A stretch of DNA of 64,000 nucleotides from Nanobdellota archaeon (GTDB taxonomy: Archaea; Nanobdellota; Nanobdellia; Pacearchaeales; GW2011-AR1). Where the stretch lies: assembly GCA_038045825.1 (NCBI GenBank), contig JBBSXJ010000001.1:6281-70280 (forward strand), read 5' to 3'. A program made the translations under genes and the position numbers. Under the pieces are notes generated by a model. It saw only the letters and a program-made list of their open reading frames with translations, had not been told where the DNA came from and did not search any database. Shown piece by piece: positions 2,996-63,239 of the stretch (its first letter is position 1; each line of letters starts with the position of its first letter).

Positions 2996-3487
2996 ATGTT
3001 CAAAAAGGGTGTTAGTCCTGTTGTTGCTACTGTTCTTCTTATTGTAATAGTGATTGTTCTTGCTACTATAATATTCATATGGGCTAAAGGATTTTTATCT
3101 GAAAGTGCTACTAAAGGAGATAGAGTTGTTGAGAGTTCTTGTGAAGATGTTAATTTTAAAGTTCAAATTGCTTCTAGTGCAAGCCAGTGCAGTAGTGGAA
3201 GTGGTTGGGCTATAGATATAAACAACATAGGGAATGTTCCAATATACGGCATTAAAGTTCTGAAGTATGATGATTCAACTGGAAGTATTGACGATTTGGC
3301 TCTTGCTGATGAGACTTTTGTTGGAGGAACGGTTACTGTTGGAAGATCTTCTTATGTTTGTATGACTGGTACATTAAACGGTGGAGATAAATTCAGAATA
3401 ATACCTAAGCTTCTTGCAGAGAAAGATAGTAGAAAGATTGCTTATACATGTCCTGAAAAAGATGGACAGACTATTGTTTATACTTAA
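2996..3487 (+). CDS. archaeal type IV pilin (archaellin N-terminal-like domain)
   Basis: Canonical archaeal prepilin N-terminus 'MFKKGVSPVVATVLLIVIVIVLATIIF'. Confidence 0.8.
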   Translation: MFKKGVSPVVATVLLIVIVIVLATIIFIWAKGFLSESATKGDRVVESSCEDVNFKVQIASSASQCSSGSGWAIDINNIGNVPIYGIKVLKYDDSTGSIDDLALADETFVGGTVTVGRSSYVCMTGTLNGGDKFRIIPKLLAEKDSRKIAYTCPEKDGQTIVYT

Positions 3488-3533: not shown

Positions 3534-4058
3534 TTGATGGTGATGATTGATTCTAGAAAGGGTGTTAGTCCTGTTGTTGCTACTGTTTTACTTCTTGTTT
3601 TAACAATAGTAATAGGCGGAATAGTATTTTCTGTAGTGATACCTTTTGTAAATGATTCTCTTGGAGAAAGCAAGGAATGTCTTGATATTTTTGAAGGAGT
3701 TGAATTCCCTGAAAGCCAATTTAACTGTTATTTGTCTGCTACTTCTGGAAATGAAACTGGTTTTTCTATAAAAGTTAATAAGGAAGGAATATCAAGGGTC
3801 AGAGTTGGTTTGATAGATGGTGATGGCAACTCTGATGTTTTTGAGATATACGAAGGAGCTTCTGATGCAAATTTGAGGCCTATGGGTGGCGCACTAGCTG
3901 AAGCACTTACATTTCCTGCTATAAGTGGTCAGAGAACATATGTTGTGAATAAATTGTACAAGAAGGCCGAGATATCTGCTTTGACAACTTCAGGAGATGT
4001 TTGTTCTGTTGCAGACATTATTGAATTTGAGCCTTGTATAGGCGTCACATTCCCATGA
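3534..4058 (+). CDS. archaeal type IV pilin (archaellin N-terminal-like domain)
   Basis: 'SRKGVSPVVATVLLLVLTIVIGGIVF'. It is a paralogue of the 2996 gene at the N-terminus. Confidence 0.8.
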   Translation: MMVMIDSRKGVSPVVATVLLLVLTIVIGGIVFSVVIPFVNDSLGESKECLDIFEGVEFPESQFNCYLSATSGNETGFSIKVNKEGISRVRVGLIDGDGNSDVFEIYEGASDANLRPMGGALAEALTFPAISGQRTYVVNKLYKKAEISALTTSGDVCSVADIIEFEPCIGVTFP

Positions 4059-12298: not shown

Positions 12299-13018
12299 TT
12301 GATGTATAAAAAAGGATTGAGCCACATAGAATTTGTGGTTTCATTTACAATATTCATAGGGTTTCTTGTATTTGCTTTTGTATTCTTTAATCCGTTGCAG
12401 AGTCAAAGAACATTGAAGTCTACAATGGATTATGCTTGGATTGAGGTATCTCGTGAGGGAAGAGAAAATATTGAAAGTTACTCTGTGTCTATAGATACGG
12501 GATATGCTTCGGCCGTAAATTTTGAGATAGCTGGAATACCTTTAGATTATAATGCTACTGCAGAAGATGAAAATGGTAATCCAATAGATGTACATAGAGA
12601 TTCTAACGGGATAGTTTATCTTGATAGAGGAACTAGCAATTTTATTAAGATATTATACTCTCCTGCTTTAGAGAATAGTCCTTTTGTAAGTCTTGGAGCT
12701 TCACTTGGAACAATAACTCCTACCACAACTACAGGTAATTTTTATATTTCTTCTTCTGAGATAAAAGACATCTATTTTGAGAGATTATTTTTAGAATTAA
12801 ATCAAAGTTATTACTCTGATTATGCTGCACTTAAAGAAGACTTGAACTTGCCAAACAGAATAGATTTTGGATTCATAATTACTTTTGATAATCATCAAAT
12901 AAGAGCAATGAATGATGTACCTGAGGGTATTGAAGTATTGTCAAAGAATGATAGAGTCGAGATAATTAAACAGAATGGAGATCATGGATTTGCCGAGGTA
13001 ACTGTTTTGGTATGGTAA
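12299..13018 (+). CDS. pilin-like protein (class III signal peptide)
   Basis: 'MMYKKGLS|HIEFVVSFTIFIGFLVFAFVFF'. Confidence 0.55.
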   Translation: MMYKKGLSHIEFVVSFTIFIGFLVFAFVFFNPLQSQRTLKSTMDYAWIEVSREGRENIESYSVSIDTGYASAVNFEIAGIPLDYNATAEDENGNPIDVHRDSNGIVYLDRGTSNFIKILYSPALENSPFVSLGASLGTITPTTTTGNFYISSSEIKDIYFERLFLELNQSYYSDYAALKEDLNLPNRIDFGFIITFDNHQIRAMNDVPEGIEVLSKNDRVEIIKQNGDHGFAEVTVLVW

Positions 13019-13488
13019 ATCAAAAAATCGATGTTGATACTCGATTTTTGGATGATCGAAGTGTCGACTTAAGGAGACACTTGCGACATAAAAAAGGAAT
13101 TGCTAGGATAATTGAACTTCTTATAGCTATAACAATTATTTCAATAATATTACTTGTTACATACAGACAAAGCTTACCTTCACAAGAAACTCAGGATTTA
13201 TCTGAAAATGCAAGAGACATATTATCTGAAATAAGCACTATTGATAACTTAAGAGATGAAGTTGTAGCTAATCAAGTTAATGTTGTTGCAATGACTAACA
13301 CTCTTGCGTTTATTAACTCGAGTTTACCTGATTATATTAAATTTGAATTACGTGCGTGCATAATAACAAGTTCATGTGGTCAATCTAATTATGTTGGAGA
13401 TGTCTACTCTGCCGAGAGAATAATAAGCGCCAGTAGAGATGAGTTTGGTCCTGTTAAACTAAGATTATTCTTGTGGGTAGAAGAATGA
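13012..13488 (+). CDS. pilin-like protein with repeat-element insertion in its leader
   Basis: 'MVN[QKIDVDTRFLDDRSVDLRRHLRH]KKGIARIIELLIAITIISIILLV'. The bracketed 23 codons are repeat-element copy A. Without them the N-terminus is a canonical 'MVNKKG|IA...' prepilin. Confidence 0.55.
   Translation: MVNQKIDVDTRFLDDRSVDLRRHLRHKKGIARIIELLIAITIISIILLVTYRQSLPSQETQDLSENARDILSEISTIDNLRDEVVANQVNVVAMTNTLAFINSSLPDYIKFELRACIITSSCGQSNYVGDVYSAERIISASRDEFGPVKLRLFLWVEE
13021..13089 (+). mobile_element. miniature hairpin repeat element, copy A (69 bp)
   Basis: It shares 'atcaaaaaatcgatg...ctcgatttttggatga' and '...gatcgaagt...cgacat' with the copies at 48740-48817 and 29427-29599 (rc). A hairpin pairs aaaaatcga with tcgattttt. 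Confidence 0.65.
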
Positions 13489-28739: not shown

Positions 28740-28952
28740 ATGGAAACAAATAAGTCTGACATGGAAACTGTGCCTACGAAGTTAACTAAAAGAATTATCA
28801 CTGAAATGGAAGAAATAATTAAACAGGGATGGTATGCTAATAGATCTGAATTAATTAGGGATGCTGTGCGCGACTTAGTTAAAAAACAAAAAATAACCTT
28901 ATTGGAGTCTGCTATAAAAGAGGATATTCAATGGGGATTGTATGGAAAGTAA
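28740..28952 (+). CDS. CopG/RHH-family antitoxin
   Basis: 'GWYANRSELIRDAVRDLV' is an RHH signature. It overlaps the PIN gene. Confidence 0.75.
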   Translation: METNKSDMETVPTKLTKRIITEMEEIIKQGWYANRSELIRDAVRDLVKKQKITLLESAIKEDIQWGLYGK

Positions 28953-29427
28953 GGCTATCTCTGATACTGGTCCTGTAATTCATTTAAATGAAATTAATTT
29001 AACTTCTGCTTTGGATGTTTTTTCATCAATATTCATACCATTAGAAGTTTCTCATGAATTGCAAAAATATAAAATAAATCTTCCAAAAAAAATAAAGGTT
29101 AGAGAATTAGAGGGACTGTCTAAAGATATAGTTAAGATTTTAACTAATGAGTATGACTTGGATATTGGAGAATCTTGTGCTATTTCATTGGCATTGCAAG
29201 AGAAAGCGGATTACTTTCTTACAGATGATTTAGAGGCTCGCGAAACAGCAAAAAAATACAAATTGGAAGTTCATGGGACTGTAGGAATTATTCTAAGAGC
29301 ATTTAAGGAAAAAATAATTGATAGAAAGACAGCTATAACAAGAATAAACGATTTACATGAGAAATCTACTTTATTTATCACAAAAGATCTTATTAAAAAT
29401 ATAATAGAAGCAATTGAGTCATTTTGA
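28942..29427 (+). CDS. PIN-domain nuclease toxin
   Basis: It has an N-terminal 'ISDTGPVIHL', then acidic residues 'GESCAISLA' and 'FLTDDLEAR', and pairs with the upstream RHH gene. Confidence 0.75.
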   Translation: MESKAISDTGPVIHLNEINLTSALDVFSSIFIPLEVSHELQKYKINLPKKIKVRELEGLSKDIVKILTNEYDLDIGESCAISLALQEKADYFLTDDLEARETAKKYKLEVHGTVGIILRAFKEKIIDRKTAITRINDLHEKSTLFITKDLIKNIIEAIESF

Positions 29428-29599
29428 TGTCGATAGTCTCTCACATAAACCACACCTTTTAGGAGGTGTTCAAGACTTCGATCACTGCAACAGTATCGTC
29501 TGTTGCAGGTACTACAACTTCTTTGAAGTTGAAGTCATCCAAAAATCGAGCACCAATCAAACCACACACTTTAGTATATGGCAGTGCATCGATTTTTTG
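29427..29599 (-). mobile_element. miniature hairpin repeat element, copy C (173 bp, longest)
   Basis: The reverse complement begins 'caaaaaatcgatgcac' and ends 'gagagactatcgacat'. Internal perfect hairpins are ctgcaacag/ctgttgcag, caacttc/gaagttg and acacct/aggtgt. A long-range stem pairs caaaaaatcgatgcac with gtgctcgatttttgg. Confidence 0.65.
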
Positions 29600-29625
29600 A
29601 TATGAATAATTTGCAAGTATGTTTA

Positions 29626-32600
29626 CTACTTCAATCTAATTGTTTCCAAATTTCTAGGAACTATTGTTTCTATACCATACTGGCGGTAAATACTTGATGC
29701 GAAATCCAAACAACGAGATTGTTCTCCGTGAGAAATTATTACTTTCTTAGGTTTAGGAGTCATTCTTCCTATAAACTGCATTAACTCTCCTCTTCCAGAG
29801 TGAGCTGAAAGACCAGACATTGTTTCAACTTGCATGTTTACATTTATTGTCTCTCCTCCAAAGTTTTCATCTATTCTTACAACTTTATTTCCTTCTGAGA
29901 CTTGTCTTCCTAAGGTATTAGGTCCTTGGTAACATCCGAAAATTATTAGGTTCTTTTCATTTTCAGCAAATTCTTTGAAATATTCAACTGAAGCTCCTCC
30001 AGCAAGCATTCCGTTTGTTGCAATAACTATGCATGGGCCTCCTTCAAAGACTTCTTTTCTTTCTGTAGGAGAACCTACTCTTTTGAATAATGAAGAAGTA
30101 AATGGATTTTCATCATTGAAGATTTTATTTCTTATATTACTTCCAAGAAATTCTGGGTAAGCTGTGTGAATTGCAGTTATATCCCATAACATACCATCAA
30201 GATAAACTGGAATTTGGGGAAGCTTCCCTGTGCGAATTGCATCTTCCACTCTTAGCAATGTTTCTTGAGCGTGACCTAAACCCAATTCAGGAAGAAGTAT
30301 CTTTCCCCCTCTCTTTATAGTATCATTAACTAGAATGCAGAATTTCTCATCAACTTCTGATAATGGGGGCTGAATCTGGTCTTTGCTTCCATAAGTTGAT
30401 TCTACCATTATTGATTCAACTCTCGGATAGAAGTTTACAGCGGGATCGAGAAGTCTTGTTTTTCTATAATTTGAGTCTCCAGTATAAACAAAATTATGTA
30501 ATCCATTTCCTATATTTACATGAGTTATAGCTGATCCAAGAACGTGTCCGGCATTATAAAATGTAATCCTAATATCTGGAGTTATATCAAAGACTTCTCC
30601 ATAATTAAGACATATTGAGTGTCTAACCATCTCTTTTACATCATCTGCTCTGTATATTGGAACTTCTGCTTTTTTGTAATGTACACTTACAAGATCAAGA
30701 GCAAGAAGAGCTGAGATATCTCTTGTTGGAGGAGTCATATATACAGGACCTTTGTACCCCATCTTGTATAGATAAGGAATTAATCCAGAATTGTGAACCA
30801 CTATATTTCCGGCTATAAAGTTGTGGCTTTCTACTTCTATATCTACTAAATAAGGATATGGATTTTCTTTTGAATCTATGGTTGTTATTTTTTCCCAGAT
30901 AACCTCTAATTTAAGAATATTTTCTAGAAGAGATATTTTATTATTAATGGCAGAAATTGTAGATGTCATCTTGTCTTTCATAAAAGATGAAAGGATGTGT
31001 GAAATCGAAGCCGCAAATTCTTTAGAAATTCTGTTTTCTTCTATTTGTTGTATTTGAGAAACTTTTAAACCAGTAGAAAGGCTTATTTCAGTTCTGGTAA
31101 GACTTAATAGCTGCCTAAGAACATACATATCATTTAGATCTATTCTTTTATTAATTTCAGTTATTCTATTCTTTAATACATATAGAAGTGTTTCTGCAGT
31201 CTTTCTTGTTGCATATCCTTCTTTTCTTCTAAATAAGTCTAAAAGACTCATAGGTAAAATATTACTTAAATTTGGACTATCATGTACTTTTCCCAACATG
31301 CCCGCTACTTTTAGTATTTCTCGCAAGTCATTTGAAGTTAAAGGCACTAAATCTTGTTTATTAAATTCATGATTATTAAACTTGGAAACTTCACTCATCA
31401 GATTGTCCATTTTATATTTTATTGAGAAGCCAACTTTTTCTTTGAACCTAGACAATCCGTAAATTGAAGATATACTTATGTCGTTGCCTGAAATATGTGA
31501 AGGGATATTGTTTAAAGAGAATAGATGCTGTAAATCTTTAATCATTTCTTTGCTGAATGAAGTTATTTTAATTCTGTTTGAAACTGTACCTTCTGCATCA
31601 GCAAAACCCCTTAAAAATGCTAGTTGTACTTCGTTTCCTGAATTAATTATCTTTTCAGGTATCCTAATATCTCTTGTTTTAGAGAAAAATTCTGGAAAGT
31701 TATTTTCCAAGAATCTAATTATTTTTATATTGTTTATTTCAAGAATATGTGCATTTTTTGTTTTATCTGAGTGATGCCTTATTATTGCCTCGGAATTAAA
31801 TAACTCTTTGATTATTTCTTTATGATATTCTAAAATTGGGATATGTGAATCTGTTAACCTTAAAGAATAAGGTGTTGATTTATGCCCATCACCCATATAA
31901 TAACCAATAAATTCTGCTAGATTTGGAGTCAGCTCATGAGGAAGATGTGTTTTGCCTTCCCCTTTTTTATTATATTGGACTTTAGTGATTAGTGGAATTA
32001 GCTCTCCTAATTTTTGATCTTTATGGAGTAAATTTGATGGCAAGAGCATATGTTCTGTTAATTCTTGGGCCTCAGTTTCTTTGATTTCTAGATTTTTAAC
32101 TGTAAAGAATCTATGGTTTGGAGAAGACTCTATTGTTGAATAAGGCGTTTTAATTGTTAGTACTCTTTTATGCCCATTAGTTTGAGTTTTTTCAGTTACT
32201 TTAGATGATATATATTTACCAGATTTCCAATCTAATGAAATTACGTTTTCCCCTACTTTAATATCATCTATTTTCTTGTAACCTTTTTCTGTTAGAACAG
32301 GATATTGTGGAGGCAGACAATGGTCTAAATGAGCGTGTGAAAGAACTATTGCATCAATACTTGAAATGTCTCCTATTTCAGAAACATCTAAGTAAGGGAA
32401 TCTTTCTGGACCAGATATAACTCCAACGTTTATTCCACAGTCAAAAACTATCTTTGACTTTGGAGTCTGCAATAAAAGACATGAACGGCCTACTTGTCTT
32501 CCAGACCCAAGATAAGTAAGTCTAACCCACATATCCATCTTTTCAGGATTCCAGTTCTCATAAATCTTCTTTCCAATTTCATTCAAGAATTTCTTTCTGT

Positions 32601-33051
32601 AAGAGTTATTTGCATAAAGGACATCTCTGATTTTTTCAGTTATTTTTGAGTGGATCGCAGGACTTCTTTGAGTTTGGATTGTCCACATCGTAGAATTCTT
32701 TATTTCTTTTAGAATTGAACCATTCTTTCCTATTACTATTCCAGGGCGCTTTGCCTCCACTATTGCAGTAGATCTAGGAACATCAAATATTATGGATTCT
32801 ATTTCTGCATCTGTTGGAACTAATTCACGAATGGTCTTCTCAGTCTCTTCTTGAGGGGCTAGCATTGAACTATCCGCCCTTAACTCTATTCTTTTTTTTA
32901 CCTTCTTTACTATATCTCTTATTTTATCATCTGAGTTTCTAAAGAATTCTTTGTCTGTTGTGTAAAGAACTATGTTTGCTCCTTCAAAGATTGCCTCGCT
33001 AACTACACCGTTAGGTAATTCGCTTTTTATTGCCTTTAATATTTCACTCAT
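29626..33051 (-). CDS. aCPSF1 (KH-domain beta-CASP metallo-beta-lactamase ribonuclease), interrupted by an intein
   Basis: It has N-terminal KH domains ('GIVIGKNGSILKEIK'). The MBL motif 'LSHAHLDH' resumes after the intein with 'SGLIPYLYKMGYKGPVYMTPP'. It also has a beta-CASP region and a C-terminal 'ISHGE'. Confidence 0.9.
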   Translation of the reverse strand: MSEILKAIKSELPNGVVSEAIFEGANIVLYTTDKEFFRNSDDKIRDIVKKVKKRIELRADSSMLAPQEETEKTIRELVPTDAEIESIIFDVPRSTAIVEAKRPGIVIGKNGSILKEIKNSTMWTIQTQRSPAIHSKITEKIRDVLYANNSYRKKFLNEIGKKIYENWNPEKMDMWVRLTYLGSGRQVGRSCLLLQTPKSKIVFDCGINVGVISGPERFPYLDVSEIGDISSIDAIVLSHAHLDHCLPPQYPVLTEKGYKKIDDIKVGENVISLDWKSGKYISSKVTEKTQTNGHKRVLTIKTPYSTIESSPNHRFFTVKNLEIKETEAQELTEHMLLPSNLLHKDQKLGELIPLITKVQYNKKGEGKTHLPHELTPNLAEFIGYYMGDGHKSTPYSLRLTDSHIPILEYHKEIIKELFNSEAIIRHHSDKTKNAHILEINNIKIIRFLENNFPEFFSKTRDIRIPEKIINSGNEVQLAFLRGFADAEGTVSNRIKITSFSKEMIKDLQHLFSLNNIPSHISGNDISISSIYGLSRFKEKVGFSIKYKMDNLMSEVSKFNNHEFNKQDLVPLTSNDLREILKVAGMLGKVHDSPNLSNILPMSLLDLFRRKEGYATRKTAETLLYVLKNRITEINKRIDLNDMYVLRQLLSLTRTEISLSTGLKVSQIQQIEENRISKEFAASISHILSSFMKDKMTSTISAINNKISLLENILKLEVIWEKITTIDSKENPYPYLVDIEVESHNFIAGNIVVHNSGLIPYLYKMGYKGPVYMTPPTRDISALLALDLVSVHYKKAEVPIYRADDVKEMVRHSICLNYGEVFDITPDIRITFYNAGHVLGSAITHVNIGNGLHNFVYTGDSNYRKTRLLDPAVNFYPRVESIMVESTYGSKDQIQPPLSEVDEKFCILVNDTIKRGGKILLPELGLGHAQETLLRVEDAIRTGKLPQIPVYLDGMLWDITAIHTAYPEFLGSNIRNKIFNDENPFTSSLFKRVGSPTERKEVFEGGPCIVIATNGMLAGGASVEYFKEFAENEKNLIIFGCYQGPNTLGRQVSEGNKVVRIDENFGGETINVNMQVETMSGLSAHSGRGELMQFIGRMTPKPKKVIISHGEQSRCLDFASSIYRQYGIETIVPRNLETIRLK
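30790..32319 (-). mobile_element. aCPSF1 intein with LAGLIDADG homing-endonuclease domain (510 aa)
   Basis: It starts at Cys245 ('CLPPQYPVL'), has block B 'SSPNHRF', LAGLIDADG motifs 'FIGYYMGDGH' and 'LRGFADAEGT', and ends 'GNIVVHN' followed by +1 Ser. I checked the codons on the sequence: tgt at rc 32319-32317, aat at rc 30792-30790. Confidence 0.88.
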
Positions 33052-47130: not shown

Positions 47131-47787
47131 TTGATTAAACAAAAGATTTATATAGGAACAGTTAGTTCCGTTATAGGAACTATTAGTTCATATAAGATGA
47201 CATCTTTAACAGACAAAGAAAGTGAGATATTAATTAAATTATTTAAGAATTTTAGTACGAACTATAATGCAAATTCAATATCTAAAGAAGTTGGTCTTAG
47301 TCCGAGAGGATCTTTAAAAATATTAAAACGTTTAGAAAAAAATGGAATATTAGCAGGTAAAAAACTAGGGAAAGCTGTATTTTACAAATTAAACCTGCAA
47401 GATTTATATGCAAGTAAAATAATGGAAACGACCTTAATCAAAGAAACGAGAACTAAGGCTATGAGGTGGATTGATGAATTTAAAGAAATATTTGATTATA
47501 CTGATATAGTTCTAATTTTTGGGTCAGTTATAAAAAATCCAAAACATGCTAGCGATATAGATGTTCTTTTCGTTTATAAAAAGAAAAATTATAAGATTGT
47601 TTCCAACTTTATTTTAGCCAAAAACAAAATACTGTTTAAAAAAATACATGATATACCTCAAACTATCCAAGATCTAAAAGAGAACCTTAAAGATAACCCA
47701 GCTATTATAGATGCAATAAAAAATGGTTATGTCTTGCATGGTTATGATAAAATTGTTGAGGTAATAAAAAATGTCACAATCTTCTAA
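47131..47787 (+). CDS. wHTH + nucleotidyltransferase (MNT-like) fusion protein
   Basis: The likely start is the ATG at 47197. wHTH: 'ANSISKEVGLSPRGSLKILKRLEKNGIL'. NTase: 'LIFGSVIKNPKHASDIDVLFV'. Confidence 0.7.
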   Translation: MIKQKIYIGTVSSVIGTISSYKMTSLTDKESEILIKLFKNFSTNYNANSISKEVGLSPRGSLKILKRLEKNGILAGKKLGKAVFYKLNLQDLYASKIMETTLIKETRTKAMRWIDEFKEIFDYTDIVLIFGSVIKNPKHASDIDVLFVYKKKNYKIVSNFILAKNKILFKKIHDIPQTIQDLKENLKDNPAIIDAIKNGYVLHGYDKIVEVIKNVTIF

Positions 47788-48307
47788 ACATGTAGGATGG
47801 TGTTTAAATAAAGCTAAGAAAGAACTAGAAGAATGTAAAAAATTGGGAAAGAGAGCAAAACATAGAGGCTTAGTTAAATCTAAACCTGACAAGCAAGAAT
47901 CGAAAAATCATTTGAAAAAGGCTGAAGAAAATTTAGAATTTGCCATCCAGCTAGATAAAAATAAATATGGTTATAAGATTATAGAATCTTTATTTTACTG
48001 CATATATCAATGTTTTCTCTCTATTGTAGCTAAATTTGGTTATGAATCTGCAAACCAAACATGCACAATAAGTTTAGTTGAATATTTAAAAGAAGATGGC
48101 AAAATAGATTTGGATCAGAAATTTATTGAAATGATGAAATATAAAGATGAACAGAAAGAAGACATGTATAGCATTATTGAAATGAGAGAAGATTATACTT
48201 ATAGTTCTAAAGTCTCTGTAGAAGAAGAAAAGATTGAAGAATTAGTAACTACTTGTAAAGAGCTTTTGGAAAAAACTAAAGAAATCATATATTTAGAAGA
48301 ACAATGA
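47771..48307 (+). CDS. HEPN-like partner protein (tentative)
   Basis: It is helical, overlaps the 3' end of the NTase gene and occupies the usual partner position. I did not see a clear Rx4-6H motif. Confidence 0.4.
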   Translation: MSQSSKHVGWCLNKAKKELEECKKLGKRAKHRGLVKSKPDKQESKNHLKKAEENLEFAIQLDKNKYGYKIIESLFYCIYQCFLSIVAKFGYESANQTCTISLVEYLKEDGKIDLDQKFIEMMKYKDEQKEDMYSIIEMREDYTYSSKVSVEEEKIEELVTTCKELLEKTKEIIYLEEQ

Positions 48308-48575: not shown

Positions 48576-48902
48576 TTATTTGTAAATTCTTCCTCTTTTA
48601 TCAAAGACCCTTACAAATAAAATCTTTCTTTTAAAATCTATATCTATTAACATCCTATAGTCTCCTATTCTTAATTTATAATCTTCACCTTCAAAATGTT
48701 CTAGAAACCTAAATGGATCCAAAACAATTTCATTAAATCAAAAAATCGATGCACTTTTGATTTGTGCTCGATTTTTGGATGATTGAAGTTTCGATTTTGT
48801 GAGAAACTATCAACATTTAGATTTAATTCTTTCTTGGATATCTTTAGGAAGATTTCTGAAAAATTTAGTAGCCTGGTTTGAGAATTTTACAGAGTAACTC
48901 AT
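48576..48902 (-). pseudogene. relE: RelE/ParE-family toxin gene disrupted by repeat-element copy B
   Basis: 5' part: 'MSYSVKFSNQATKFFRNLPKDIQERIKSK'. 3' part: 'FNEIVLDPFRFLEHFEGEDYKLRIGDYRMLIDIDFKRKILFVRVFDKRGRIYK*'. Deleting 48740-48817 joins them in frame. Confidence 0.75.
48740..48817 (+). mobile_element. miniature hairpin repeat element, copy B (78 bp)
   Basis: 'caaaaaatcgatgcac-ttttgattt-gtgctcgatttttggatgattgaagtttcgattttgtgagaaactatcaacat'. It lies inside the RelE ORF. Confidence 0.75.
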
Positions 48903-49072
48903 AAATTCTCTAAATCTGTGTAAGAGGATTCAGGGTCTTTTCGAGCTTTTGCTAATTCTTTTTTAGCCCATTCTGTAAGCTTTCCTTCAGACATTAGCAT
49001 ATATTTTATTAGAGCAATATCTCTCTTTAGGGATAAAATATCATCATGCAGATGTTTTGCATTAACTTCCAT
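48899..49072 (-). CDS. antitoxin of the RelE module (57 aa)
   Basis: My own reading gives 'MEVNAKHLHDDILSLKRDIALIKYMLMSEGKLTEWAKKELAKARKDPESSYTDLENL'. There is an ATGA overlap with the relE start. Confidence 0.55.
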   Translation of the reverse strand: MEVNAKHLHDDILSLKRDIALIKYMLMSEGKLTEWAKKELAKARKDPESSYTDLENL

Positions 49073-49181: not shown

Positions 49182-50342
49182 ATGGACGATAACTCTAGAA
49201 GAAGGCAGGAAGATTGGGAGAGAAGTTTAGCGGCTTGGAAATCTAAACAAAATAAAGAGAGTAGTGTACCACATCATCAACCAAAACCAGTATCGACACC
49301 CAGCCAAGATCAGTATTCTTCAAAAGCATTTAACAAATTTCTAATCTTTTTGGCTTTTGCAATTCCTCTAGCACTTTTAGGTTATGCGTTATATATCAAT
49401 TACCTACCATTTGGCTATGAGAAAAGCTATGAATTAACAGTTGACGAAAATGGGGTTATCTCACCATTGTCAAATGAAATTTACTTGACAACACCCCAAG
49501 GAAGAAAACTCTTATCATTGCCTGAAGGTGTGCAGGGACAAGTTAACTTAGTTATTGATCCAAAAGTAGTTCTGAAGAATTCAACTATAAATGTTTCAAT
49601 TGAAGGAGATAATGTATACCTAGCGCCTCTATTGAGCTTGGATTTAGATAGTATGGAATGGGATCACAACTGGGATTTCAGTCAAAATATCCCAGAAGAA
49701 TTTGAAGGCACAGCAGAATATAATGAAGAAGAAGCATGCACACACTTTAATGCCTATAATGAGCAAACCTTAAACTTGCCCAATTCAGAAGACATGTTTG
49801 AATCAGGGCCAATGAGCATTTATGTAAAGTGGAAGCCTAGTTATGTAAGTCAGAAATTAGGAAATAATCAACAGTTAGCAGGACATTTTAACTGGGAAAT
49901 ATGGCAAAACGAAAAGAGTGTTCAGTTTAGAGTTGGTAGAATGAATGACGCTAATGGCTCGATGCATTCAATAAGTTATCCAATTGATCTAGAATTTTTT
50001 GGAAAAGAACATGAAGCCTTAGCAGTTTATTCTCCAAGTGAAGATGGTAATGGATATATTGAATTATGGATAGATAAAAATTTAGCAGGAAGAGCATTAA
50101 TTGGGAGCGATGTTATCTATCCAGATTATAATTTTAATATCTCGTTAAATTTTGGTTGGAGTTCACATAACAATGGAAATAATCCTTATTATGATGGTTG
50201 TTTATATGAAGTTAAGGTAACCGATATAGCATTGAAAGAAGAGAGAAACCAATTTGAAATAAATGGAATTAATGGAAAAATGGTTATCCCAGTCATAGGA
50301 AACGGGAACTTAAAAGTTCTAAAGGCTATAATTTCACAATGA
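49182..50342 (+). CDS. membrane-anchored LamG/concanavalin-like domain protein
   Basis: It has an N-terminal cytoplasmic segment and the TM 'FLIFLAFAIPLALLGYALYI'. The C-terminal 'YIELWIDKNLAGR...DGCLYEVKVTD' resembles LamG-type lectin folds. Confidence 0.5.
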   Translation: MDDNSRRRQEDWERSLAAWKSKQNKESSVPHHQPKPVSTPSQDQYSSKAFNKFLIFLAFAIPLALLGYALYINYLPFGYEKSYELTVDENGVISPLSNEIYLTTPQGRKLLSLPEGVQGQVNLVIDPKVVLKNSTINVSIEGDNVYLAPLLSLDLDSMEWDHNWDFSQNIPEEFEGTAEYNEEEACTHFNAYNEQTLNLPNSEDMFESGPMSIYVKWKPSYVSQKLGNNQQLAGHFNWEIWQNEKSVQFRVGRMNDANGSMHSISYPIDLEFFGKEHEALAVYSPSEDGNGYIELWIDKNLAGRALIGSDVIYPDYNFNISLNFGWSSHNNGNNPYYDGCLYEVKVTDIALKEERNQFEINGINGKMVIPVIGNGNLKVLKAIISQ

Positions 50343-61649: not shown

Positions 61650-62350
61650 CATTCAAAAGACCTGACGGAAGGAAACTAGATGAAATGAGACCTATTGTGG
61701 CTAAAATAGGAATTGTTCCTAATGCTGATGGAAGTGCAATGTTTACATTTGGTAAAACTGTAGCAATTGCTGCAGTTTATGGACCTAGATTATTACACCC
61801 TCAACATATGCAAGATCCTAAGGCTGCTATATTAAGAGTTAATTATGATTTACTTTCATTCTCTGTTGCAGATAGAAAGAAGCCTGGACCTTCAAGAAGA
61901 TCACAGGAAATTTCTAAAGTTACTGAGTGGGCATTATCTCCTGCACTTGATTTGAAAGAATTTCCTAATACAGTTATTGATGTACAGATATACATATTAC
62001 AAGCTAATGCAAGTACAAGGGTGGCTGGAATAAACGCTGCTAGTATGGCTTTGGCTCAAGCTGGGATACCTATGAAAGATTTAGTTTGTGCTGTATCTGT
62101 AGGAAAGATGGATAAGGACCTTGTTTTAGATGTTAATGATGAAGAAGAACACTTTGAAGATGGAGAGGGCGCAACAGACATGGCTACTGCTAGATTAGCA
62201 AACTCTGACAAATGGACATTACTTCAATTAGATGGAAAGATACAACCTGATCTTTACCCTAAGGCATTAAGTATGGCAGACAAAGCATTTGCTAAGATTT
62301 ATGAAGTGCAGAAAAAAGCATTAAAGAGTGTCATGGAGGAAGAAAAATGA
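61646..62350 (+). CDS. rrp41: exosome complex exonuclease Rrp41 (RNase PH domain)
   Basis: 'RPDGRKLDEMRPI...ADGSAMFTFGKTVAIAAVYGPR'. Confidence 0.92.
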   Translation: MTFKRPDGRKLDEMRPIVAKIGIVPNADGSAMFTFGKTVAIAAVYGPRLLHPQHMQDPKAAILRVNYDLLSFSVADRKKPGPSRRSQEISKVTEWALSPALDLKEFPNTVIDVQIYILQANASTRVAGINAASMALAQAGIPMKDLVCAVSVGKMDKDLVLDVNDEEEHFEDGEGATDMATARLANSDKWTLLQLDGKIQPDLYPKALSMADKAFAKIYEVQKKALKSVMEEEK

Positions 62351-62385
62351 AAAAATTTTTGTTAACAAGTAAAACTTTTGCCTGT

Positions 62386-62416
62386 TCAATATTCCCAAGT
62401 AGGGGAGGAATATTGA
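62386..62416 (+). promoter_or_regulatory. perfect 10-bp hairpin overlapping the rrp42 Shine-Dalgarno region
   Basis: tcaatattcc (62386-62395) pairs with ggaatattga (62407-62416) across an 11-nt loop. GGAGG (62404-62408) is partly in the 3' arm. The ATG is at 62418. Confidence 0.4.
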
Positions 62417-62417
62417 C

Positions 62418-63239
62418 ATGAGCGCAATGAATTTATCTAATTTGACTTATAATACTTTAAGCAAGATGTTTGTTGCTGGAAAGAGATTTGATGGTCGTAA
62501 ACTTTTAGAGCAGAGAGATTTCACAGTGGAATATGATGTTTCTTACAAAGCTGAGGGAAGCGCTAGAGTTAAACTAGGAAAAACAGAAGTTGTTGTAGGA
62601 GTTAAAATGGAAGTTGGGACTCCTTACCCTGATTCTATGGACAAAGGAAACTTGATGGTTTCTGGAGATTTATTGCCTCTAGCATCACCTAGATTTGAAT
62701 CTGGACCTCCTAAGTTCAATGCTATTGAATTACCAAGATTAATTGATAGAATGGTAAGAGAATCTCATATGATTGATTTAAGCAAATTGGTAATAACTGA
62801 AGGAGAGAAAGTTTGGGTAGTGATTATTGATATTTATCCTATAAATGATGATGGAGCATTGATTGATGCCGCAAGTATTGCTACAATAGCTGCTTTACAG
62901 CAGGTACGTATCCCTGAATTGAATAAAGATTTAAAGATAGATCATGATAAAAAAGGAACAAAGAAATTGCCTTTGGTTGATTCAATATTGCCTTTGTCAT
63001 TTACATTCTACAAGCTTGCAGATTCATTATTCATTGATCCAACAAGAGAAGAAGAAGAAGCAGCTGATGGAAAGATTGTGTTGGGCATATCACATTACAA
63101 AGGAAAAGAACATATGATACACTCTGCTCAAAAAGGAATGGAAGCTCATTTATCAACTGAAGATATAACTGAAATGATGAAAACTCTTCCAAAACTGTAT
63201 GACGATACACTTAAAAAGCTTAAAAAGTTTCTGAAGTAA
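62418..63239 (+). CDS. rrp42: exosome complex subunit Rrp42 (RNase PH-like)
   Basis: 'GKRFDGRKLLEQRDFTVEYDVSYKAEGSARVKLGKTEVVVGVK'. Confidence 0.9.
   Translation: MSAMNLSNLTYNTLSKMFVAGKRFDGRKLLEQRDFTVEYDVSYKAEGSARVKLGKTEVVVGVKMEVGTPYPDSMDKGNLMVSGDLLPLASPRFESGPPKFNAIELPRLIDRMVRESHMIDLSKLVITEGEKVWVVIIDIYPINDDGALIDAASIATIAALQQVRIPELNKDLKIDHDKKGTKKLPLVDSILPLSFTFYKLADSLFIDPTREEEEAADGKIVLGISHYKGKEHMIHSAQKGMEAHLSTEDITEMMKTLPKLYDDTLKKLKKFLK

Follow-up and report, generated by a model that had tools for sequence, protein, structure and literature searches.

Several kinds of small repeats with which the element considered here can be compared have been described. The Rickettsia palindromic elements (RPEs) are small hairpin repeats that lie in frame within unrelated functional genes, to whose products they add a tolerated peptide (PMC10969869). 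[quoted passage not shown] The insertion sequences (ISs) of the IS200/IS605 type and the palindrome-associated transposable elements (PATEs) have subterminal hairpins and show strandedness; they possess no inverted repeats, cause no duplication and leave a scarless joint at the donor site (PMC10055086). The DNA analysed in this work, referred to below as the window, is a stretch of 64,000 nt from a Nanobdellota archaeon (assembly GCA_038045825.1, contig JBBSXJ010000001.1, positions 6,281 to 70,280 of the forward strand), in which a gene for a toxin of the RelE/ParE type is split by a 78-nt element. The results described below indicate that this toxin gene is very probably a pseudogene, which arose by the insertion of a mobile element consisting of two hairpins, and that the family of this element resembles the RPEs in its lifestyle.

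The interrupted toxin gene and its partner

The toxin gene and its partner are both encoded on the minus strand. The upstream gene (48899-49072) is an intact open reading frame (ORF) for a protein of 57 aa and its TGA stop codon overlaps the ATG of the toxin gene (ATGA). The toxin gene itself is present in two parts, viz. a 5' fragment of codons 1-29 (48816-48902, minus strand), which ends at the invariant residue K29 just before the element, and a 3' fragment consisting of codons 30-82 and the stop codon (48576-48737, minus strand), whose frame is that of the 5' fragment. Between the two lies copy 1 of the element, a 78-nt sequence with two hairpins (48738-48815, plus strand, hence antisense to the toxin), as delimited by a covariance model, by its fold and by a gap in the DNA relative to intact loci. 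Read from its start, the toxin ORF gives MSYSVKFSNQATKFFRNLPKDIQERIKSKC and then meets a TGA, a TAG and later another TGA, all three of them within the element, after which it resumes in unchanged frame as FNEIVLDPFRFLEHFEGEDYKLRIGDYRMLIDIDFKRKILFVRVFDKRGRIYK (FNEIVLDPF...GRIYK, followed by the stop). No other frameshift or stop is seen in either half of the toxin. The initial annotation of this locus had described a toxin inactivated by the insertion with its upstream gene retained, and the three stops in the toxin together with the intact 57-aa gene agree with this description.

Removal of 48738-48815 yields an 82-aa protein with the same junction (...tctaaatttaatg...) that was quoted in the initial annotation. 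The coordinates given there for the element, 48740-48817, were displaced by 2 nt, and deletion of that segment would change K29 to R. However, since both halves of the toxin are in one frame, and any deletion of a multiple of three nucleotides that spans the stops will open the ORF, the exactness of the excision needed independent proof. Three independent lines of evidence provide it. First, comparison with the other copies of the element places its boundaries at TCAAAAAATCGATG...CGACA, and the covariance model matches copy 1 precisely over 48738-48815 (90.9 bits, E 5e-18). Second, 16 intact homologues (81-84 aa, 68-84% identity) align without gaps with the repaired toxin at the junction between K29 and F30, where K29 does not vary and most of the proteins have F30, and none of these 16 proteins contains a segment equivalent to the 78-nt element. 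Third, in a DNA alignment of three intact loci with the window, a single clean gap of 78 nt is present at ...AAA/TTT... (the slash marks the insertion point). The boundaries of the deletion can be moved by 1 nt in either direction, because A and T flank both ends, and the empty-site junction predicted for this locus is ...TCTAAATTTAAT... (TCTAAA/TTTAAT). The insertion, its exact boundaries and the empty sites that correspond to it are thus direct observations, and the proposal that the excision is exact is borne out.

The protein obtained by this deletion had been described as an uninterrupted 82-aa RelE/ParE-like toxin, and this identification is corroborated by its match to the profile PF05016 (ParE_toxin), which scores 30.6 bits against a cutoff of 23 and covers residues 5-77 (profile positions 1-86 of 89) without a break, crossing the junction. 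The repaired toxin has 255 homologues, and among the 120 of these that were listed nearly all are 81-86 aa in length (the exceptions being P0104 with 64 aa and P0097 with 88 aa) and many are named as RelE/ParE proteins of metagenome-assembled genomes (MAGs) of Nanoarchaeota or Pacearchaeota. Two outcomes that would have spoken against an interrupted toxin, viz. homologues that naturally carry an equivalent segment, or the lack of a RelE/ParE profile match, were therefore not what was found. Based on these sequence comparisons, the repaired gene belongs to the RelE/ParE superfamily of toxins, and it is predicted to be toxic, by ribosome-dependent cleavage of mRNA or by poisoning of gyrase, and to be neutralised by its partner.

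With regard to the partner, intact modules in which a 57-aa gene overlaps an 82-aa toxin gene by 4 nt are found in two other loci (L036 and L037), where the toxins are close homologues of the repaired one. The 57-aa gene of the window aligns to theirs without gaps or stops, and in the DNA these modules are set apart from the window by one gap of 78 nt. No match to this gene was obtained in Pfam or NCBIfam. The intact ORF and the ATGA overlap reported for it earlier are correct, whereas the name antitoxin, which was also given to it, is based on position and conservation and on no family match; we refer to it as a presumed antitoxin in this sense.

Distribution of the element in DPANN archaea

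The element was earlier called a 78-bp repeat. This is apt insofar as related copies share its ends and core, whereas no second 78-bp copy exists in the window, where the exact 78-nt sequence occurs once (chance expectation 0). Two other copies of different lengths are present. Copy 2 (13020-13088, plus strand) is 69 nt long, matches the covariance model with 89.5 bits and is located in frame and in sense within a gene, where it encodes QKIDVDTRFLDDRSVDLRRHLRH. Copy 3 (29428-29600, minus strand) is a long variant of 173 nt with four hairpins, to which the model gives two matches, of 41.8 and 28.1 bits. It sits between the convergent FttA/aCPSF1 gene and a pair of genes for a ribbon-helix-helix (RHH) protein and a DUF3368 protein, in the sense of FttA/aCPSF1 and 26 nt past its stop codon, and the same variant recurs at a different locus in L029/L032. 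The three copies in the window have in common the sequence TCAAAAAATCGATG ... CTCGATTTTTGGATGA ... TCGAAGTnnC ... GnnACTnnCGACA.

Including these three, 19 distinct copies with lengths of 60-173 nt were identified. A search with a two-block pattern detected the element in one Pacearchaeota genome, one Woesearchaeota genome and about 20 groundwater contigs, and gave no match among viral contigs; ten matches in bacterial and other sequences were discarded, as the 3' half of the element was missing in them. The covariance model, which was built on 13 copies, recovers all 13 with E values of 1e-11 to 1e-19 and adds diverged copies to them. A scan of the whole window against Rfam at the gathering score gave no match, more sensitive Rfam scans around two of the copies gave noise only (E 0.05 or worse), and no transfer RNA (tRNA) or transfer-messenger RNA (tmRNA) was detected in the window. 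In the literature on DPANN archaea (named after the Diapherotrites, Parvarchaeota, Aenigmarchaeota, Nanoarchaeota and Nanohaloarchaeota), a search that did not cover all journals found no account of such an element, and a census of MITEs mentions only a MITE-rich genome from Woesearchaeota. On this evidence the element appears to be a two-hairpin repeat, not filed before, of DPANN archaea of the Woesearchaeota and Pacearchaeota type ("Nanoarchaeota").

Some further sequences related to the element should be noted. A fourth candidate in the window (62348-62418, plus strand) was rejected, as its model score is 26 bits (rough E 1e-3) and its fold is no better than that of shuffled sequences (z -1.1). 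This sequence is the short spacer between two exosome genes of the RNase PH type and contains an 11-bp hairpin that resembles the second hairpin of the element and has TTGACA at its end; it may represent a degenerated relative or simply be a hairpin. In L015 (890-1040, minus strand), a degenerate copy stands immediately in front of a well-preserved one in a head-to-tail arrangement, the junction between the two being ...CCATCGACA/TCAAAAAATCG..., and a tRNA-like sequence in matching orientation is present about 60 nt downstream of the well-preserved copy.

Two-hairpin structure of the element

All variants of the element fold as two hairpins. These are tandem, related units (H1 and H2), which are joined by the conserved linker GGATGA. 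The first two bases of the element pair with the GA of this central linker and the last two with the adjacent UG (base 1 with the linker A, the final base with the U next to it), and as the terminal bases thus pair with neighbouring halves of the linker, the two ends of the element abut. Both the ends and the linker are invariant across genomes of the Woesearchaeota and Pacearchaeota type. Terminal inverted repeats are absent: when the 5' end (TCAAAAAATCGATG) is compared with the reverse complement of the 3' end (TGTCGATAG / TGTCGATAGTG), only an offset TCGAT is common to the two.

The stems are supported by covariation among 18 distinct sequences, in which 99.2% of the cells are paired and 10 of the 22 pairs show double compensatory changes, a result that none of 500 shuffles matches, whereas in registers slid along the alignment the paired fraction drops to 31-56%. 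Only three stem changes are one-sided and each of them gives a G.U pair on the sense strand. Even an otherwise invariant base of H1 is compensated in the 60-nt variant (AAAAAACC/GGTTTTTT). The family and its structure are thus directly observed. In a 120-nt long form, related sub-hairpins are found on the tips of both hairpins, from which it follows that the element consists of two tandem related units and that the short forms are tip deletions. This long form is seen in L038 (10001-10210) and at the equivalent sites of L039-L041, at the extreme 5' end of the gene for E2 (dihydrolipoamide acyltransferase), and in these four separately assembled contigs the gene callers have split off a spurious ORF of 69 aa (P0126).

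In-frame copies within other genes

If a copy of the element is located within a gene whose product is needed by the cell, then it should be tolerated only when it can be read through by the ribosome. Seven of the 19 distinct copies are inside long ORFs, and all seven are in the sense orientation, have lengths that are multiples of three (60-90 nt) and are free of stops, although this class is partly defined by its openness and the frame statistic is for this reason not fully independent. The seven share one reading frame (T/CAA AAA..., with the slash before the first codon), which encodes QKID..RFLDDRS..RH. In contrast, among the ten other copies that do not involve read-through of a confirmed gene, five have lengths that are not multiples of three. 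These in-frame copies are observed directly. They are probably translated as hydrophilic peptides of 20-40 aa, although this is argued from length and frame statistics and translation has not been observed. Their hosts are unrelated to each other and include a pilin-like protein, a UvrD helicase with a PD-(D/E)XK nuclease, the phosphoglycerate mutase ApgM and a DUF6036 nucleotidyltransferase, among others.

One example is provided by copy 2, whose host is an ORF for a 158-aa pilin-like protein with a hydrophobic N-terminal segment (13012-13488, plus strand). The element is in the N-terminal leader, and more than 60 pilin-like homologues of 133-135 aa, which start with MVN(Q/K)(K/R)GIARIIELL, lack exactly those 23 residues. 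An identical entry in NCBI, from a MAG of a Nanoarchaeota archaeon, is annotated as hypothetical. In two homologues of this protein (P0162 and P0164), unrelated extra segments of about 35 and 20 aa follow MVN/MVS at the position of copy 2, and other in-frame insertions may have a hot spot in this leader. In the UvrD helicase-nuclease, the element is found in the linker between the domains. In ApgM, the segment is an insertion relative to the solved structures 2zkt and 3kd8, with its residues 173-213 facing about 4 residues of 3kd8. When the peptide of the long form (P0123) was searched against 1.84 billion representative proteins, more internal in-frame copies were found in unrelated hosts (e.g., P0203, P0210 and P0222); two other matches, P0204 and P0213, are unrelated repeat proteins and were set aside. 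A profile of the tandem-doubled peptide matched seven small ORFs only.

Not all of the copies within genes are of the tolerated kind. In addition to the RelE gene, a HEPN gene in L027 is broken by a 74-nt copy in the sense orientation, and its excision restores a continuous HEPN domain across the junction (27.9 bits, cutoff 22). It is thus likely that a copy in a needed gene is retained only if it is translatable, while dispensable genes for defence or toxin-antitoxin (TA) functions can be broken.

Target site, orientation and mobility

The sequences flanking the element are similar at the positions closest to it. The base at -1 is A in all 19 copies, that at +1 is T in 18 and that at +3 is A in 18, and the left context is A-rich; however, beyond the A at -1 this flank contains no defined tetranucleotide and no pairing with a guide was identified. 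The junctions allow at most a repeat of 1-2 nt (A, T or AT), which is indistinguishable from the conserved ends of the element, and the empty sites exclude a target duplication longer than 2 nt. A 3-nt duplication (TCA/TNA) was considered, as the right flank is often T(A/C)A, but is ruled out by the RelE empty site. In three hosts, viz. the RelE, pilin-like and HEPN genes, excision is exact to the nucleotide. With respect to local transcription, 15 copies are in sense, one (that in RelE) is antisense and two are between convergent genes; for the 16 informative copies the bias toward sense has a binomial p of about 5e-4 (our own arithmetic from the flank table). The suggestion in the initial annotation that the repeat is, or was, mobile finds support in the occurrence of the same family scattered over other genes and genomes.

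These results are best accounted for if a chromosomal gene for a RelE/ParE-type toxin in a groundwater DPANN archaeon was pseudogenised by a 78-nt, non-autonomous, structured mobile element. The insertion took place at AAA/TTT, and because the element entered antisense to the gene, stop codons follow after codon 29 of the toxin. In general, the element inserts between an A and a T in an A-rich context, and its removal restores the original sequence exactly. Copies in dispensable genes, such as those for RelE and HEPN, can break the gene and yet persist, whereas copies in needed genes would persist only if they are in sense, of a length divisible by three and open in the single stop-free frame, in which case they would be translated. 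The movement presumably takes place at the level of DNA, by a strand-specific enzyme that would be supplied in trans. A single-stranded "peel and paste" route like that of IS200/IS605 is the one we favour for it, tentatively and with the balance against it, because neither a cognate transposase nor a flank motif has been established. A more far-reaching interpretation, which we consider unlikely when taken as a whole, is that the family represents a new class of strand-specific DPANN mobile elements without inverted repeats or target duplication, whose ends are splinted on the linker and whose excised form closes to a rod-like circle of single-stranded DNA or RNA; such elements would move via the circle, would be kept under selection where they have landed, and would be routinely translated in essential proteins of organisms whose genomes are very small, where they would be a source of new protein segments. 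The circle junction of the excised form would read ...CGACA/TCAAAAAA.... The RelE event itself, however, is an ordinary, even if very clean, pseudogenisation.

Alternative explanations

A number of observations weigh against the origin by a mobile element outlined above, in addition to the limits on the frame statistic and on translation that were indicated where these were given. The RelE insertion is identical at the 5 places examined, which stand for 11 contigs encoding the same 57-aa protein, and no empty or excised allele is seen in any of them. These contigs come from several wells and runs and represent two haplotypes, which differ by one synonymous single-nucleotide polymorphism and both carry the insertion. 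Thus, the insertion is fixed in the population and nothing at this site points to recent activity. No transposase is present among the ten mid-sized ORFs of the window, all of which are housekeeping genes, and motif scans of 355 kb revealed no version of the element that carries a cargo or is split between H1 and H2; a Y1 (HUH) transposase likewise did not turn up in these ten ORFs or in these scans, no dedicated search for it having been made. The viral contigs, as noted, gave no match. Further, a model of purely parasitic DNA does not obviously account for the sense bias of the intergenic copies. Lastly, at the orthologous sites of L009 and L011, whose coding sequences are about 80% identical, the blocks of the element are 100% identical and one stem pair is compensated, while the adjacent spacer is scrambled. 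The structure of the element at these sites has been maintained or refreshed after its insertion.

The last of these observations also speaks for the view that the repeat is mainly a structured module useful to the host (e.g., a hairpin for RNA stability or processing, a protein-binding site or a termination signal), which was spread and kept by selection and to which the RelE gene fell victim as collateral damage. The invariance of the ends and linker in genomes of both the Woesearchaeota and Pacearchaeota type, the sense copies located just upstream or downstream of genes, one of them by a tRNA, and the placement of copy 3 shortly past the FttA stop codon can all be read in the same manner. 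However, the conservation at orthologous sites could also have come about by gene conversion or because a preferred site was hit repeatedly, the neighbouring genes belong to no common class and the copies keep no fixed distance to starts or stops, and the presence of copies within unrelated coding sequences, two of which they break, is hard to fit with a designed function in cis. As the main explanation we regard this as quite improbable, although a useful role is compatible with mobility and the two could coexist.

It could also be supposed that the element represents a small intron, or a segment removable at the RNA level in some other way, in which case the interrupted genes, possibly including RelE, would still give intact products. 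The nucleotide-exact removal in the three tested hosts, the strong conservation of the structure by covariation, the transcription sense of nearly every copy, the G.U nature of all three one-sided stem changes on that strand, and the holding together of the ends on an internal linker all speak for this reading. Yet splicing would require no constraint of the kind seen in the seven embedded copies, which are divisible by three and are free of stops in the single frame that they share, while half of the others are not divisible by three. Further, the boundaries abut beside paired bases and are not found in two 3-nt bulges with a 4-bp helix between them, the flanks are variable, unpaired and devoid of covariation, and no ribozyme or intron of Rfam is matched. 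In the RelE gene, moreover, the copy is antisense, so that the conserved motifs are present in its transcript as their complement. An intron of the bulge-helix-bulge type was rejected on the basis of the boundary geometry and the frame constraint, and RNA-level removal in any form is very unlikely.

If, instead, the element could leave the DNA precisely, then the insertion might act as a reversible switch, whose excision would re-arm the toxin and make the activity of the TA module phase-variable. Such an excision would be scarless, both toxin halves are otherwise free of frameshifts and stops, and elements of the IS200/IS605 type are known to excise far more often than they insert, leaving scarless joints (PMC10055086). 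However, the empty allele was seen at none of the 5 places (11 contigs), both haplotypes are occupied, and no transposase is known for this family, so that we find a switch of this kind hardly credible. The last possibility, that the 78 nt are an artefact of assembly, a chimera or a chance similarity and no real insertion, for which nothing speaks beyond the general risk of metagenome assembly, is refuted by the identical locus, which recurs in assemblies made independently for different wells as well as in a Logan run; the presence of the family at other loci and in other genomes with E values down to 1e-19, and the chance expectation of 0 for the 78-nt sequence, also speak against it.

Other features of the window

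The origin of the split toxin gene by insertion of a mobile element thus remains the explanation that we prefer, and the genes that surround it are those of a chromosome. Housekeeping genes in the window include those for arginyl-tRNA synthetase (ArgRS), CCA-adding enzyme, an RNase J-like protein, an intein-containing FttA, archease and exosome subunits, and proteins identical to those encoded here are found in NCBI under MAGs named "Nanoarchaeota archaeon". The FttA/aCPSF1 protein (29626-33051, minus strand) is 1141 aa long because of its intein, which contains a LAGLIDADG domain and is inserted within the metallo-beta-lactamase domain (Pfam matches: Intein_splicing, residues 252-754; LAGLIDADG_3, residues 474-523). 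On the other side of copy 3, the RHH gene overlaps that for the DUF3368 protein, which is PIN-like (28740-29427, plus strand), and both matches are slightly below their cutoffs (RHH_8, 25.3 bits against 25.4; DUF3368, 26.6 against 27.3); this is possibly another TA-like pair, to whose stop codon copy 3 is directly joined by its 3' end.

Adjoining the RelE module is an overlapping pair of genes (47131-48307, plus strand) that resembles MNT-HEPN TA systems, with scores below the cutoffs for Polbeta (22.3 bits) and HEPN (15.1 bits). Immediately upstream of the module is an ORF of 386 aa (49182-50342, plus strand), for which there is no Pfam match, nor for its equivalents from related contigs. Elsewhere in the window, two neighbouring ORFs that are alike in size (2996-3487 and 3534-4058) and are probably tandem paralogues each contain at the 5' end one unit of a 42-nt direct repeat with 93% identity (3004-3045 and 3557-3598, plus strand).

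Comparison with known systems

The likeness of the present element to the known systems is of different degrees. With the bulge-helix-bulge introns of archaea it has in common an archaeal host, a short and structured form and the restoration of the gene when the segment is removed exactly, but the boundary geometry of such introns is lacking and the copies within genes obey the reading frame. In comparison to decaying type II TA modules of the RelE/ParE kind, in which likewise a small upstream gene overlaps an 82-aa toxin and the toxin is broken while its partner is intact, the locus described here differs in that the damage is a clean, reversible insertion and not a set of point mutations or a deletion, and in that the partner has no recognisable antitoxin family. 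The RelE locus thus offers a clean and datable case in which a scarless insertion has disarmed a TA module and for which there are intact relatives to compare.

Like the classical MITEs, including those known in archaea from Sulfolobus and Haloquadratum, the element is small, non-autonomous and present in many copies, and its insertion can inactivate genes, but its ends are not inverted repeats and a defined duplication of 2-10 bp is absent. With minimal elements of the IS200/IS605 type (PATEs) and repeats of the repetitive extragenic palindrome (REP) and bacterial interspersed mosaic element (BIME) type it shares a hairpin near each end, the lack of inverted repeats and of a clear duplication, the scarless removal, a conserved base context in the 5' flank and strand specificity, features that are described for IS200/IS605 elements and PATEs (PMC10055086). 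However, no Y1 transposase or full-length element with these ends turned up in the DNA that was scanned, and the flank motif is merely A-rich with an invariant A/T at the insertion point. The left ends of IS608-type elements have a longer spacer with a guide sequence, whereas H1 of the DPANN element begins 3 nt from the left end.

The functionally closest known system is that of the RPEs, which are likewise small, hairpin-forming, non-coding repeats that have no transposase of their own and are found in frame in unrelated genes; for the DPANN element, at least seven such hosts are seen. This similarity, however, should be understood as one of functional class and not of homology, as there is no sequence relationship between the two and the hosts in the present case are archaeal (DPANN). 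The element is also shorter (typically 60-120 nt, whereas RPEs are of about 100-150 bp) and consists of two tandem hairpins, whose ends meet on a linker, where an RPE is one long palindrome; further, it is strongly biased toward the sense orientation, outside genes as well as within them, and the covariation of its stems continues between copies. The DPANN archaea are reduced, host-dependent cells, and the RPE habit of an unrelated element in them suggests that this may be a recurrent outcome in small, AT-rich and gene-dense genomes. In the annotation of DPANN MAGs, the copies give rise to small ORFs that are spurious, to split genes and to unusual N-termini. As a covariance model and dozens of sites, occupied as well as empty, are available for it, the family is also tractable for the study of how such elements move, how their strand bias arises and how proteins absorb segments of 20-40 residues.

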